DNA of 64,000 nt from Escherichia coli (lineage in GTDB: Bacteria > Pseudomonadota > Gammaproteobacteria > Enterobacterales > Enterobacteriaceae), in the NCBI RefSeq assembly GCF_003334405.1, contig NZ_QOWM01000006.1, one strand, 5' to 3'. Positions 4,694 through 19,296 of the stretch are shown in pieces (position 1 is the first letter of the stretch; every line of letters begins with the position of its first letter). The notes under the pieces are model-generated. The model had not been told where the DNA came from, made no database searches, and saw only the letters and a list, made by a program, of their open reading frames with translations. Position numbers and translations under genes: made by a program.

Positions 4694-4789
4694 CCGATCG
4701 AGCACAAATTTTGAGAGATATCTTCTTCTGTCTTGTAACAGAAGAACAGAAAATCGGGCTTTTGCGCCTGAATATTGCGGAGAAAAAGC

Positions 4790-7324
4790 ATGGCCGGGAA
4801 TGACCGCGAGCCAATTGGACGCAAAGGGAAACCGACGCGTCCGGTCAAACAAAAGGTAAGCCGTCGTCGTTACGAAGATGACGATGATTACGACGATTAT
4901 GATGACTATGAGGATGAAGAACCGATGCCGCGCAAAGGTAAGGGCAAAGGCAAAGGGCGTAAGCCTCGTGGCAAACGCGGCTGGCTATGGCTACTGCTAA
5001 AACTGGCTATCGTTTTTGCCGTGCTGATCGCCATTTACGGCGTTTATCTCGATCAAAAAATTCGTAGCCGTATTGATGGCAAGGTCTGGCAACTGCCTGC
5101 GGCAGTTTATGGCCGAATGGTCAATCTTGAGCCAGACATGACCATCAGCAAGAACGAGATGGTGAAGCTGCTGGAGGCGACCCAGTATCGTCAGGTGTCG
5201 AAAATGACCCGTCCTGGCGAATTTACCGTGCAGGCCAACAGCATTGAGATGATTCGCCGTCCGTTTGATTTCCCGGACAGTAAAGAAGGACAGGTGCGCG
5301 CGCGTCTGACCTTTGATGGCGATCATCTGGCGACGATCGTCAATATGGAGAACAACCGTCAGTTCGGTTTCTTCCGTCTTGATCCGCGTCTGATCACCAT
5401 GATCTCTTCGCCAAACGGTGAGCAGCGTCTGTTTGTGCCGCGCAGTGGTTTCCCGGATTTGCTGGTGGATACTTTGCTGGCGACAGAAGACCGTCATTTT
5501 TACGAGCATGATGGAATCAGTCTCTACTCAATCGGACGTGCGGTGCTGGCAAACCTGACCGCCGGACGCACGGTACAGGGTGCGAGTACGCTGACGCAAC
5601 AGCTGGTGAAAAACCTGTTCCTCTCCAGCGAGCGTTCTTACTGGCGTAAAGCGAACGAAGCTTACATGGCGCTGATCATGGACGCGCGTTACAGCAAAGA
5701 CCGTATTCTTGAGCTGTATATGAACGAGGTGTATCTCGGTCAGAGCGGCGACAACGAAATCCGCGGCTTCCCGCTGGCAAGCTTGTATTACTTTGGTCGC
5801 CCGGTAGAAGAGCTAAGCCTCGACCAGCAGGCGCTGTTAGTCGGTATGGTGAAAGGGGCGTCCATCTACAACCCGTGGCGTAACCCAAAACTGGCGCTGG
5901 AGCGACGTAATCTGGTGCTGCGTCTGCTGCAACAGCAACAGATTATTGATCAAGAACTCTATGACATGTTGAGTGCCCGTCCGCTGGGGGTTCAGCCGCG
6001 CGGTGGGGTGATCTCTCCTCAGCCAGCCTTTATGCAACTGGTGCGTCAGGAGCTGCAGGCAAAACTGGGCGATAAGGTAAAAGATCTCTCCGGCGTGAAG
6101 ATCTTCACTACCTTTGACTCGGTGGCCCAGGACGCGGCAGAAAAAGCCGCCGTGGAAGGCATTCCGGCACTGAAGAAACAGCGTAAGTTGAGCGATCTTG
6201 AAACTGCGATTGTGGTCGTCGACCGCTTTAGTGGTGAAGTTCGTGCGATGGTCGGAGGTTCTGAGCCGCAGTTTGCGGGCTACAACCGTGCGATGCAGGC
6301 GCGTCGTTCGATTGGTTCCCTTGCAAAACCAGCGACTTATCTGACGGCCTTAAGCCAGCCGAAAATCTATCGTCTGAATACGTGGATTGCGGATGCGCCA
6401 ATTGCGCTGCGTCAGCCGAATGGCCAGGTCTGGTCACCGCAGAATGATGACCGTCGTTATAGCGAAAGCGGCAGAGTGATGCTGGTGGATGCGTTGACCC
6501 GTTCGATGAACGTGCCGACGGTAAATCTGGGGATGGCGCTGGGGCTGCCTGCGGTTACGGAGACCTGGATTAAACTGGGCGTACCGAAAGATCAGTTGCA
6601 TCCGGTTCCGGCAATGCTGCTGGGGGCGTTGAACTTAACGCCAATCGAAGTGGCGCAGGCATTCCAGACCATCGCCAGCGGTGGTAACCGTGCACCGCTT
6701 TCTGCGCTGCGTTCGGTAATCGCGGAAGATGGCAAAGTGCTGTATCAGAGCTTCCCGCAGGCGGAACGCGCTGTTCCGGCGCAGGCGGCGTATCTGACAC
6801 TATGGACCATGCAGCAGGTGGTACAACGCGGTACGGGTCGTCAGCTTGGGGCGAAATACCCGAACCTGCATCTGGCAGGGAAAACAGGGACTACCAACAA
6901 TAACGTAGATACCTGGTTTGCGGGCATTGACGGCAGCACGGTGACCATCACCTGGGTCGGCCGTGATAACAACCAGCCGACCAAACTGTATGGTGCCAGC
7001 GGGGCAATGTCGATTTATCAGCGTTATCTGGCTAACCAGACGCCAACGCCGCTGAATCTTGTTCCGCCAGAAGATATTGCAGATATGGGCGTGGACTACG
7101 ACGGCAACTTTGTTTGCAGCGGTGGCATGCGTATCTTGCCGGTCTGGACCAGCGATCCGCAATCGCTGTGCCAGCAGAGCGAGATGCAGCAGCAGCCGTC
7201 AGGCAATCCGTTTGATCAGTCTTCTCAGCCGCAGCAACAGCCGCAACAGCAACCTGCTCAGCAAGAGCAGAAAGACAGCGACGGTGTAGCCGGTTGGATC
7301 AAGGATATGTTTGGTAGTAATTAA
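4790..7324 (+). CDS. mrcB: Penicillin-binding protein 1B (bifunctional glycosyltransferase/transpeptidase)
   Basis: ORF 4775..7324 trimmed to ATG 4790 ([14 protein letters not shown]..., 844 aa); GT51 motif [12 protein letters not shown]; SxxK motif in SIGSLAKP; single TM helix after basic/acidic N-terminus. Confidence 0.94.
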
Positions 7325-7340
7325 CATCTAAGCGTGAAAT

Positions 7341-7365
7341 ACCGGATGGCGAGTTGCCATCCGGT
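7341..7365. terminator. Perfect 10-bp stem hairpin just downstream of mrcB (ACCGGATGGC-gagtt-GCCATCCGGT); possible terminator or mRNA-stabilising stem
   Basis: Read from sequence; no strong U-tract follows, so terminator function is uncertain. Confidence 0.35.
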
Positions 7366-7483
7366 AAAATAACATCCCATCTAAGATATTAACCCTTTCT
7401 TTTCATCTGGTTGTTTATTAACCCTTCAGGAACGCTCAGATTGCGTACCGCTTGCGAACCCGCCAGCGTTTCGAATATTATCT

Positions 7484-7523
7484 TATCTTTATAATAATCA
7501 TTCTCGTTTACGTTATCATTCAC
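7484..7523 (+). promoter_or_regulatory. Fur box region of the fhuA promoter (TCTTTATAATAATCATTCTCG plus downstream ACGTTATCATTCAC)
   Basis: Matches the GATAATGATAATCATTATC Fur consensus in 13-14 of 19 positions; located 20-60 bp upstream of the fhuA ATG. Confidence 0.6.
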
Positions 7524-7543
7524 TTTACATCAGAGATATACCA

Positions 7544-9787
7544 ATGGCGCGTTCCAAAACTGCTCAGCCAAAACACTCACTGCGTAAAATCGCAGTTGTA
7601 GTAGCCACAGCGGTTAGCGGCATGTCTGTTTATGCACAGGCAGCGGTTGAACCGAAAGAAGACACTATCACCGTTACCGCTGCACCTGCGCCGCAAGAAA
7701 GCGCATGGGGGCCTGCTGCAACTATTGCGGCGCGACAGTCTGCTACCGGCACTAAAACCGATACGCCGATTCAAAAAGTGCCACAGTCTATTTCTGTTGT
7801 GACCGCCGAAGAGATGGCGCTGCATCAGCCGAAGTCGGTAAAAGAAGCGCTTAGCTACACGCCGGGTGTCTCTGTTGGTACGCGTGGCGCATCCAACACC
7901 TATGACCACCTGATCATTCGCGGCTTTGCGGCAGAAGGCCAAAGCCAGAATAACTATCTGAATGGCCTGAAGTTGCAGGGCAACTTCTATAACGATGCGG
8001 TCATTGACCCGTATATGCTGGAACGCGCTGAAATTATGCGTGGCCCGGTTTCCGTGCTTTACGGTAAAAGCAGTCCTGGCGGCCTGTTGAATATGGTCAG
8101 CAAGCGTCCGACCACCGAACCGCTGAAAGAAGTTCAGTTTAAAGCCGGTACTGACAGCCTGTTCCAGACTGGTTTTGACTTTAGCGATTCGTTGGATGAT
8201 GACGGTGTTTACTCTTATCGCCTGACCGGTCTTGCGCGTTCTGCCAATGCCCAGCAGAAAGGGTCAGAAGAGCAGCGTTATGCTATTGCACCGGCGTTCA
8301 CCTGGCGTCCGGATGATAAAACCAATTTTACCTTCCTTTCTTACTTCCAGAACGAGCCGGAAACCGGTTATTACGGCTGGTTGCCGAAAGAGGGAACCGT
8401 TGAGCCGCTGCCGAACGGTAAGCGTCTGCCGACAGACTTTAATGAAGGGGCGAAGAACAACACCTATTCTCGTAATGAGAAGATGGTCGGCTACAGCTTC
8501 GATCACGAATTTAACGACACCTTTACTGTGCGTCAGAACCTGCGCTTTGCTGAAAACAAAACCTCGCAAAACAGCGTTTATGGTTACGGCGTCTGCTCCG
8601 ATCCGGCGAATGCTTACAGCAAACAGTGTGCGGCATTAGCGCCAGCGGATAAAGGCCATTATCTGGCACGTAAATACGTCGTTGATGATGAGAAGCTGCA
8701 AAACTTCTCCGTTGATACCCAGTTGCAGAGCAAGTTTGCCACTGGCGATATCGACCACACCCTGCTGACCGGTGTCGACTTTATGCGTATGCGTAATGAC
8801 ATCAACGCCTGGTTTGGTTACGACGACTCTGTGCCACTGCTCAATCTGTACAATCCGGTGAATACCGATTTCGACTTCAATGCCAAAGATCCGGCAAACT
8901 CCGGCCCTTACCGCATTCTGAATAAACAGAAACAAACGGGCGTTTATGTTCAGGATCAGGCGCAGTGGGATAAAGTGCTGGTCACCCTAGGCGGTCGTTA
9001 TGACTGGGCAGATCAAGAATCTCTTAACCGCGTTGCCGGGACGACCGATAAACGTGATGACAAACAGTTTACCTGGCGTGGTGGTGTTAACTACCTGTTT
9101 GATAATGGTGTAACACCTTACTTCAGCTATAGCGAATCGTTTGAACCTTCTTCGCAAGTTGGGAAGGATGGTAATATTTTCGCACCGTCTAAAGGTAAGC
9201 AGTATGAAGTCGGCGTGAAATATGTACCGGAAGATCGTCCGATTGTAGTTACTGGTGCCGTGTATAATCTCACTAAAACCAACAACCTGATGGCGGACCC
9301 TGAGGGTTCCTTCTTCTCGGTTGAAGGTGGCGAGATCCGCGCACGTGGCGTAGAAATCGAAGCGAAAGCGGCGCTGTCGGCGAGTGTTAACGTAGTCGGT
9401 TCTTATACTTACACCGATGCGGAATACACCACCGATACTACCTATAAAGGCAATACGCCTGCACAGGTGCCAAAACACATGGCTTCGTTGTGGGCTGACT
9501 ACACCTTCTTTGACGGTCCGCTTTCAGGTCTGACGCTGGGCACCGGTGGTCGTTATACTGGCTCCAGTTATGGTGATCCGGCTAACTCCTTTAAAGTGGG
9601 AAGTTATACGGTCGTGGATGCGTTAGTACGTTATGATCTGGCGCGAGTCGGCATGGCTGGCTCCAACGTGGCGCTGCATGTTAACAACCTGTTCGATCGT
9701 GAATACGTCGCCAGCTGCTTTAACACTTATGGCTGCTTCTGGGGCGCAGAACGTCAGGTCGTTGCAACCGCAACCTTCCGTTTCTAA
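7544..9787 (+). CDS. fhuA: Ferrichrome outer membrane transporter FhuA (TonB-dependent receptor)
   Basis: 747-aa ORF with signal peptide, TonB box DTITVTA, C-terminal aromatic residue (terminal F) typical of beta-barrel OMPs. Confidence 0.97.
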   Translation: MARSKTAQPKHSLRKIAVVVATAVSGMSVYAQAAVEPKEDTITVTAAPAPQESAWGPAATIAARQSATGTKTDTPIQKVPQSISVVTAEEMALHQPKSVKEALSYTPGVSVGTRGASNTYDHLIIRGFAAEGQSQNNYLNGLKLQGNFYNDAVIDPYMLERAEIMRGPVSVLYGKSSPGGLLNMVSKRPTTEPLKEVQFKAGTDSLFQTGFDFSDSLDDDGVYSYRLTGLARSANAQQKGSEEQRYAIAPAFTWRPDDKTNFTFLSYFQNEPETGYYGWLPKEGTVEPLPNGKRLPTDFNEGAKNNTYSRNEKMVGYSFDHEFNDTFTVRQNLRFAENKTSQNSVYGYGVCSDPANAYSKQCAALAPADKGHYLARKYVVDDEKLQNFSVDTQLQSKFATGDIDHTLLTGVDFMRMRNDINAWFGYDDSVPLLNLYNPVNTDFDFNAKDPANSGPYRILNKQKQTGVYVQDQAQWDKVLVTLGGRYDWADQESLNRVAGTTDKRDDKQFTWRGGVNYLFDNGVTPYFSYSESFEPSSQVGKDGNIFAPSKGKQYEVGVKYVPEDRPIVVTGAVYNLTKTNNLMADPEGSFFSVEGGEIRARGVEIEAKAALSASVNVVGSYTYTDAEYTTDTTYKGNTPAQVPKHMASLWADYTFFDGPLSGLTLGTGGRYTGSSYGDPANSFKVGSYTVVDALVRYDLARVGMAGSNVALHVNNLFDREYVASCFNTYGCFWGAERQVVATATFRF

Positions 9788-17024: not shown

Positions 17025-17051
17025 ATGTGCCGGATAAACTATCCGGCACAT
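17025..17051. terminator. Bidirectional hairpin between convergent erpA and yadS (ATGTGCCGGAT-aaact-ATCCGGCACAT)
   Basis: Perfect 11-bp inverted repeat read from sequence. Confidence 0.5.
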
Positions 17052-18522: not shown

Positions 18523-19213
18523 GTGCAAGTTTCTGCACCAGTGACTCAACCATCAGGCTGGACTGTTTAGCGGCAACAGCCAGGAACTCATCGAAGCTAA
18601 GATGAGACTGTTGATCGGCCACGTCGGAGATGGCGCGTACGACAACAAACGGGACGTTGAAATTGTGGCAGACATGGGCGATTGCCGTCGCTTCCATCTC
18701 TACAGCAATGGCCTGTGGGAAGTTGTGGCGGATTTTCGCCAGACCAACAGAACCGTTGATGAAAGCGTCGCCGCTAACAATCAGGCCACGTACAGCGTTA
18801 AGATTCAGTTCGGCAATGCAGGCCTCAGCGGCAGCGATCAGTTTATCGTCAGCTTTAAAGCCTGCCGGACAGCCTGGTAACTGACCGTATTCATAACCAA
18901 ATGCCGTGACATCCGCGTCGTGATAACGTGCTTCGTCCGAGACAACGATATCGCCCACTTTCAACGTTGGTGCCAGGCCACCGGCAGAACCGGTGTTAAT
19001 AATCACATCTGGCTTGCAGTGTTCCAACAGCAAAGTGGCACCCAGCGCCGCAGCGACTTTACCGATGCCCGATTTCAGAAGCGCAACCTCGGTTCCATTC
19101 AGTTGGCCGGTATAGATTTCGCAACCGCCGAGACTGATAGTTTGACGGTTTTCGATTTTGTCACGCAGCAGCGTAACTTCTTCTTCCATTGCACCAATGA
19201 TGCCGATTTTCAT
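18515..19213 (-). CDS. mtn: 5'-methylthioadenosine/S-adenosylhomocysteine nucleosidase
   Basis: 232-aa [27 protein letters not shown]...; matches Mtn (Pfs). Confidence 0.97.
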
Positions 19214-19296
19214 AGATTTACTCGCGATAAGCCCGATTTGAAGGCATAGTTTACCATGCGCTTACGGGGAAGCGTATTTCTCACGCGGGAGAGGAC

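Follow-up and report, generated by a model that had tools for sequence, protein, structure and literature searches.

The mrcB-fhuA spacer of Escherichia coli: a Fur operator in the fhuA promoter and a U-less hairpin at the end of mrcB

The Fur boxes of E. coli iron-uptake promoters such as ryhB, entC, fhuF and cirA are clusters of overlapping 19-bp sites that cover the promoter. At the other end of the transcription cycle, Rho-dependent transcripts have been found to end at stable stem-loops that lack a U tract and are followed by sequence richer in C than in G, with REPs enriched among them (Dar & Sorek 2018, PMC6061677). Rho terminates downstream of these structures, and exonucleases then trim the RNA back to the stem-loop (Dar & Sorek, PMC6061677). 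REP325 combines two such activities, as it is both a partial Rho-dependent terminator and an mRNA stabiliser.

The intergenic region considered here lies between mrcB and fhuA in a window, that is, the whole stretch of 64,000 nucleotides of E. coli DNA that was analysed. Its gene order, hrpB-mrcB-fhuACDB, is that of E. coli K-12 MG1655; positions 7000-7800 are 100% identical to MG1655 and to many other E. coli genomes, and window positions are converted into K-12 coordinates by an offset of +159,940. According to the RefSeq annotation of the identical K-12 sequence and the list of open reading frames, mrcB ends with a TAA stop codon at 7322-7324 (plus strand), and fhuA starts at 7544 (RefSeq), which leaves a spacer of 219 bp (7325-7543). 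NC_000913.3 carries zero annotated features in this spacer, repeats included, and an Rfam scan of 6800-8000 at permissive thresholds returned chance-level matches only. Two mechanically called open reading frames, 7389-7523 on the minus strand and 7452-7601 on the plus strand, are unsupported by the conservation pattern. In our view the spacer probably holds two independent and rather ordinary elements: an mrcB 3′-end module, comprising 7340-7366 and the sequence downstream of it, and the fhuA promoter-operator, a control region of about 7389-7543 if the HypT sites are included. Further upstream, in the hrpB-mrcB spacer, an 'orphan' RNA 3′ end has been recorded at about window position 4696 (K-12 164636), 94 nt upstream of the mrcB ORF (Adams et al., PMC7815308); it could be the hrpB terminator or an attenuator in the mrcB 5′ leader.

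The operator is the better documented of the two elements. An earlier note, made from the sequence alone, had described an AT-rich, Fur-box-like dyad immediately upstream of fhuA, and such a dyad is indeed found at 7490-7508. This core Fur box, TATAATAATCATTCTCGTT (centre 7499, no strand assigned), is supported by a weight matrix, by a published site and by conservation. The matrix, symmetric and 19 bp wide, was built from 17 K-12 Fur sites with fhuA excluded, using the coordinates in Table 4 of Chen et al. 2007 (PMC2189734) after checking them against the gene starts of NC_000913.3; the 17 sites align as AATGATAATNATTATCATT. The site centred at 7499 scores 21.1 bits, the highest value of about 64,000 window positions, and falls within the 17.2-29.1 bits that the training sites reach in leave-one-out scoring, while shuffled spacers attain 21.1 bits with a frequency of 0.0002 (0.02% of trials). 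The matrix scoring of 7480-7525 that the note had proposed thus yields the top score of the window, in the validated range. By comparison, the classical 19-bp Fur consensus is matched at 14 of 19 positions at 7487-7505, a count that is tied with five other places in the window and therefore discriminates poorly, which is why the consensus was replaced by the weight matrix. Together with two weaker sites, centred at 7493 (7.9 bits) and 7505 (2.2 bits), the core forms a 31-bp cluster, 7484-7514. In all these respects the fhuA site resembles the Fur boxes of the iron-uptake promoters: a matrix match of the AATGATAATNATTATCATT type, weaker sites 6 bp apart, a location over the -10 and start region, and repression by iron. 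It is almost identical to the ryhB Fur site, AATAATAATCATTCTCATT, and nothing of substance sets it apart from the group.

The published record agrees with this assignment. A fhuA Fur cluster of 19.5 bits, with three sites spanning 31 bp, was placed at K-12 167439 (window 7499), at -45 from the ATG, and confirmed by gel shift (PMC2189734; also PMC1807945). ChIP-exo peaks for Fur were reported at 167456-167466 in MG1655 and 167456-167468 in W3110, corresponding to window 7516-7528 (PMC10164565); the MG1655 peak, 7516-7526, is displaced from the matrix centre by about 20 bp in the downstream direction and provides the Fur ChIP evidence that the earlier note had asked for. Deletion of fur raises fhuA expression by a log2 factor of 1.09 in MG1655 and 5.0 in W3110 and leaves mrcB unchanged (0.04 and 0.14; PMC10164565), an increase of fhuA transcripts in a fur deletion strain has also been seen by RT-qPCR (PMC7315122), and Fur represses a lacZ fusion to the fhuA promoter (PMC4676285). 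Gel shift, ChIP-exo, fur deletion and lacZ fusion together bear out the proposal that fhuACDB is iron-repressed, through Fur acting at the 7490-7508 site, and neither a low matrix score nor a lack of Fur regulation of fhuA, the two outcomes named beforehand as telling against it, was observed. That the Fur operator of fhuA is real is virtually certain; it is also already documented, and the present analysis re-derives textbook iron regulation independently. Mechanistically, in the presence of iron, Fe2+-Fur dimers would bind 7484-7514, probably extending to about 7526, and bound Fur would block RNA polymerase and so repress fhuACDB; without iron, the operon would be transcribed.

A sceptic might hold that the AT-rich dyad is mere promoter sequence rather than an operator. 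It does contain a perfect TATAAT (7490-7495), which serves as an alternative -10 hexamer inside the core Fur box with an implied start at 7502, and AT-rich promoter DNA can resemble a Fur box. This reading is scarcely credible in view of the 21.1 bits obtained with an independent matrix, and it is refuted by the published gel shift, the ChIP-exo occupancy and the Fur-dependent expression; in addition, the conserved block reaches well past a -10 hexamer. A promoter-like match on the minus strand, 7519-7491, was set aside as a by-product of the AT-rich, palindromic Fur box, as there is no gene on that strand.

Several other Fur signals in the window deserve mention in their own right. Two further MG1655 ChIP-exo peaks flank the operator, one at 167218-167254 (window 7278-7314) inside the 3′ end of mrcB and one at 167641-167672 (7701-7732) inside fhuA (PMC10164565); near the former the matrix finds only a weak match (centre 7319, 6.4 bits), and near the latter none. 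The second-best matrix match of the window, ATTGAGAATCATTCTGAAT at 29641-29659 (centre 29650, K-12 about 189590; 19.1 bits), is located in the map-tff/rpsB spacer, 84 bp upstream of the map start codon, and coincides with a published Fur ChIP-exo peak, 189588-189600, that was assigned to map (PMC10164565). The third-best, AATGATGCCGATTTTCATA at 19196-19214 (centre 19205, K-12 about 179145; 13.5 bits), falls on the initial codons of mtn and precedes dgt by 92 bp; no published Fur peak was found there.

The operator is conserved well beyond E. coli. A scan of species genomes for FhuA gave 78 loci, 63 of which have mrcB directly upstream with spacers of mostly 210-320 bp. In all 63 of these mrcB-fhuA species (Enterobacteriaceae) the best Fur score lies between 16.0 and 23.0 bits, with an almost invariant core, and in 62 of them the box is positioned at -43 to -55 from the fhuA ATG, the exception being Ewingella (-105). 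The 15 loci without mrcB within 1.3 kb upstream keep the position of the Fur box in all but one case. Aligned across genera, 7491-7522 forms a nearly invariant block of 32 bp.

The promoter on which the operator is superimposed is a sigma-70 promoter. On the plus strand, a promoter scan identifies a -35 hexamer TTGCGA at 7452-7457, which reads TTGC(G/T/C)A across genera, and a -10 hexamer TATTAT at 7476-7481 that is nearly invariant; the same arrangement, TTGCGA-18-TATTAT, was given by Shimada et al. (PMC3946193). Additional conserved blocks in the genus alignment are TTTCG (7468-7472) and AGAGA (7532-7536). The latter is present in all aligned genera and forms a Shine-Dalgarno-like element upstream of the annotated fhuA ATG at 7544-7546 (both on the plus strand). 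A mapped start of fhuA is available for K. pneumoniae, where the 5′ UTR is 55 nt long, and no E. coli fhuA start is listed in the same study (PMC3415461). The K. pneumoniae start aligns without gaps, its last upstream base falling on 7489, and would place the E. coli start at 7489 or 7490; from this alignment, transcription of fhuA probably begins at about 7489-7490. By contrast, Jo et al. (PMC6397515) used a start equivalent to 7502 with a -10 TATAAT at 7490-7495, taken from Huerta & Collado-Vides 2003, and in a third published prediction the -10 hexamer precedes the fhuA ATG by 29 nt; an overlapping TATAAT promoter starting at 7502 is possible. Whichever start is used, the -10/start region falls under the Fur cluster, and the Fur box lies at +2 to +20 if transcription begins at 7489 and at -12 to +7 if it begins at 7502. 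A published V. cholerae PfhuA is a different promoter and was set aside.

A second regulator, HypT, has been footprinted on the Salmonella fhuA promoter, at two sequences identical to 7508-7522 and 7391-7405 of E. coli (PMC6397515). The proximal equivalent, TTACGTTATCATTCA (7508-7522, plus strand; Salmonella +7 to +21, PMC6397515), is part of the invariant block, overlaps the Fur ChIP-exo peak at 7516-7526 and carries a Fur half-site, TGATAAC, on the minus strand; the distal equivalent, AACCCTTTCTTTTCA (7391-7405, plus strand; Salmonella -111 to -97, PMC6397515), is conserved across genera. Judged by this sequence correspondence, HypT sites probably flank the E. coli fhuA promoter as well, and the footprints account for the conserved blocks outside the Fur core. 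A structured fhuA 5′ UTR was considered and rejected (z = +1.05), and since the leader is without RNA structure, its conservation is best read as that of protein-binding DNA. Upstream of the -35 hexamer there is also a direct repeat, TATTAACCCTT, with copies 29 bp apart at 7387-7397 and 7416-7426; both copies are conserved in Salmonella and Citrobacter, and the copy at 7387-7397 shares bases with the distal HypT equivalent. Neither the promoter hexamers nor the two HypT sites figured in the earlier note, whose intervals, 7341-7523 and 7480-7525, do contain both the hairpin and the Fur box; its Fur reading stands, its reading of the hairpin is unproven, and its lumping of the hairpin with the Fur box was misleading.

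The second element begins 15 nt past the mrcB stop codon, where a hairpin occupies 7340-7366 on the plus strand with arms TACCGGATGGC (7340-7350) and GCCATCCGGTA (7356-7366) and a GAGTT loop. The hairpin had been described as perfect and 10 bp long; it is real and perfect, but its stem has 11 bp. Seven of the 11 pairs are G-C, and the predicted RNA has a dG of -20.9 kcal/mol, with z-scores of -5.0 to -6.6 and none of 200 shuffles folding as well. The structure thus has the stable, GC-rich stem-loop of an intrinsic terminator. What it lacks is the U tract, as had been noted before: the tail, AAAAUAAC, contains a single U among eight bases, and a terminator scan that requires a T run did not call the hairpin. 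Perfect hairpins of at least 11 bp number two in the 64-kb window against a chance expectation of about 0.1. The other one, at 17025-17051, ATGTGCCGGATA-aac-TATCCGGCACAT, has a REP-like CCGGAT core and sits between the convergent stop codons of erpA (17014) and yadS (17061).

Of 5426 complete E. coli genomes, 4850 carry the 39-nt segment with the hairpin. The K-12 haplotype accounts for 3170 genomes, G7353A for 362, A7338T combined with T7354C for 406, and A7338C combined with T7355A for 400; A7338C also occurs alone. The inspected haplotypes, which represent all but about 440 of the genomes with the segment, comprise at least five substitutions, all of them in the loop or at 7338 and none in the 22 stem bases; if mutations were random, placements that spare the stem would be expected with a probability of (17/39)^5 = 0.016. 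In the haplotypes inspected, variation in the loop and at 7338 combined with none in the stem suggests selection on pairing.

Comparison across genera places the hairpin in a wider context. A hairpin lies 5-20 nt past the mrcB stop codon in nearly every genus, with unrelated sequences, and under a strict rule 32 of 64 loci have a canonical intrinsic terminator after mrcB. Intrinsic terminators at the same place in half of the loci argue that an end-of-transcript function is conserved while the sequence that provides it turns over. The canonical examples, including those of Citrobacter, Kosakonia and Buttiauxella, match the Escherichia hairpin in location and have comparable stem stability. In them a GC stem is flanked by an A tract and a T tract, as in Citrobacter AAAACCCGC-ttcg-GCGGGTTTT-TCTTT. 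Both tracts are missing from the U-less TACCGGATGGC/GCCATCCGGTA hairpin that the Escherichia species have in common.

Natural variation also separates the hairpin from the fhuA promoter. About 566 of the 5426 E. coli genomes (about 10%) match the spacer only from about 7402 onward, and in these genomes a four-gene chaperone-usher fimbrial operon of 5.2 kb lies between mrcB and fhuA. The operon replaces K-12 bases 7325 to about 7385, for example in E. coli DA33135 (L093 3678-9141; also L095). The fhuA promoter and its Fur box are unchanged in these genomes, and the U-less hairpin that comes after mrcB is a different one, CGCTCTCCGC-ttat-GCGGAGAGCG. A fimbrial-type gene directly upstream of fhuA is likewise seen in 11 of the 15 species loci that have no mrcB in the preceding 1.3 kb. 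An operon that can stand between the hairpin and the Fur box shows that the two are separate modules, the hairpin belonging to mrcB and the Fur box to fhuA. The earlier placement of the hairpin in a fhuA control region does not survive this result, given that about 566 of 5426 genomes separate the place of the hairpin from an unchanged fhuA promoter.

How transcription leaving mrcB is kept out of fhuA is less clear-cut. In wild-type W3110, repressed fhuA RNA amounts to about 19 units and mrcB RNA to about 97 (data of PMC10164565), a ratio that allows at most about one-fifth of mrcB transcription to reach fhuA as stable RNA. Some insulation of fhuA from mrcB is therefore plausible. The earlier claim that fhuA is insulated from mrcB read-through is upheld to that extent by the W3110 ratio and by the Fur independence of mrcB; the hairpin itself as the insulator is unsupported, as it has no U tract and no RNA 3′ end listed in the one Term-seq data set consulted. 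The Term-seq tables of PMC7815308 contain no 3′ end at K-12 167290-167409, although mrcB is weakly expressed and the tables are perhaps incomplete, and a search of the Term-seq literature found neither an entry for mrcB nor a record of Rho sensitivity for the hairpin site.

The features of the mrcB 3′ end agree with those of the Rho-dependent class described by Dar & Sorek (PMC6061677): a stable stem-loop right past the coding region, no U tract, no strong A tract upstream, and C>G sequence downstream. The combination by which that class is recognised, a U-less stable stem-loop followed by untranslated C>G sequence (PMC6061677), is present, and the module also fits the dual role of REP325. The untranslated stretch at 7367-7444 (plus strand) has about twice as much C as G (24% C, 11.5% G, C/G = 2.1 over 78 nt) and is a candidate Rho-loading (rut) region, with the caveat that a C>G composition is common in AT-rich spacers. 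By analogy, RNA polymerase leaving mrcB would most likely be terminated by Rho in this C-rich, G-poor stretch past the hairpin, 3′-to-5′ exonucleases would trim the RNA back to the hairpin and thereby create a stable mrcB mRNA end, and the hairpin may also add to termination directly. We give a 3′-end protector coupled to Rho termination a slightly better than even chance of being the correct description; that Rho is involved and that the hairpin protects the RNA are both our inference.

Two other explanations compete with this one. The hairpin could be a weak, non-canonical intrinsic terminator that, even with no U tract, halts RNA polymerase independently of Rho. Its very stable, GC-rich stem would suit that role, a true intrinsic terminator stands in its position in half of the other species, and transition states between termination modes may exist (PMC6061677). 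Against this stand the single U among the eight bases of AAAAUAAC after the stem, the failure of a consensus scan to call it, and the absence of a 3′ end there from the PMC7815308 Term-seq tables, so that we regard a weak intrinsic terminator as quite improbable. Somewhat less improbable, but still unlikely, is a hairpin that only stabilises mrcB mRNA or acts as a processing stop and does not insulate fhuA, low read-through being due to weak mrcB transcription and decay of the spacer RNA. REP-type stem-loops are classical barriers to 3′ exonucleases, and mrcB expression is low (about 60-100 units), both of which speak for mere stabilisation; the five-fold drop in W3110 from mrcB RNA to repressed fhuA RNA, however, needs termination or decay within 219 bp. 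It is important to point out that this alternative overlaps with the favoured Rho-coupled protector, the sole difference being whether transcription really stops.

The ancestry of the hairpin can be traced, in part, by alignment. In Salmonella and C. amalonaticus, two inverted REPs, that is, a BIME, with CTAC/GTAG tails occupy the same place after mrcB. The left arm of the E. coli hairpin aligns with the left arm of the first REP and its right arm with the corresponding right arm of the second; E. coli lacks about 68 internal bases of the BIME, and homology continues downstream. Judging from this alignment, the mrcB hairpin looks REP-related, most simply as the collapsed outer arms of a two-REP BIME. 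It shares with REPs a CCGGATG...CATCCGG core and a location in the 3′ UTR a few bases past the stop codon. It differs from them in being a perfect palindrome of 27 nt, whereas a REP is imperfect, about 35 nt long and built on a GCCGGATG...CATCCGGC core; in its flanks, which are GAAA and AAAT instead of the GTAG/CTAC of REPs; and in copy number, with no more than three places in an E. coli genome when self-matches on the two strands are included, instead of the many copies of a REP. We accordingly rejected the idea of a high-copy repeat, as the hairpin is found in two contexts only, mrcB-fhuA and ygiC-ygiD, and a metagenome scan for the exact arms returned essentially just these two. The ygiC-ygiD twin lies at K-12 3181589-3181614 between the stop codons of the two genes, has identical 11-nt arms TACCGGATGGC/GCCATCCGGTA around a GAGT loop (ygiD strand), and fills the 37-bp spacer between these convergent genes, where no repeat is annotated. 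A literature search for ygiC or ygiD together with a terminator found nothing.

One interpretation of these observations, which we offer tentatively as possible rather than probable, is that the mrcB hairpin is the remnant of a collapsed two-REP BIME, belongs to a tiny, unannotated family of identical mini-palindromes, and may have been kept by selection, like its twin, as a U-less 3′-end protector or partner of Rho terminators. The opposite extreme would be a neutral relic of a decayed REP or BIME without function. Such a relic would account for hairpin arms that can be aligned to the outer ones of a two-REP BIME (C. amalonaticus, Salmonella), for the lack of a CTAC tail, for the presence of two copies only, and for the replacement of the hairpin altogether in about 10% of E. 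coli genomes. It is very unlikely, however, in the light of a stem that stays constant in the sampled E. coli variants while the loop and 7338 vary, of a replacing allele that again places a stable U-less hairpin right past the stop codon, and of the presence of a hairpin at the same place in nearly every genus.

For the region as such, all important points were already known, and the analysis matters little beyond annotation, in which the hairpin should be listed with the mrcB 3′ end and kept apart from fhuA control. The ygiC-ygiD twin and the reading as a REP relic are minor curiosities, of possible use to work on REP decay and on Rho-dependent 3′ ends. If that reading is true, it would show decaying REPs being domesticated into gene-end signals, and gene ends switching between intrinsic and Rho-dependent termination across genera. 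Overall, the end of mrcB is a clear example of turnover, with intrinsic terminators, REP/BIME elements or U-less hairpins occupying the same place across the Enterobacteriaceae.
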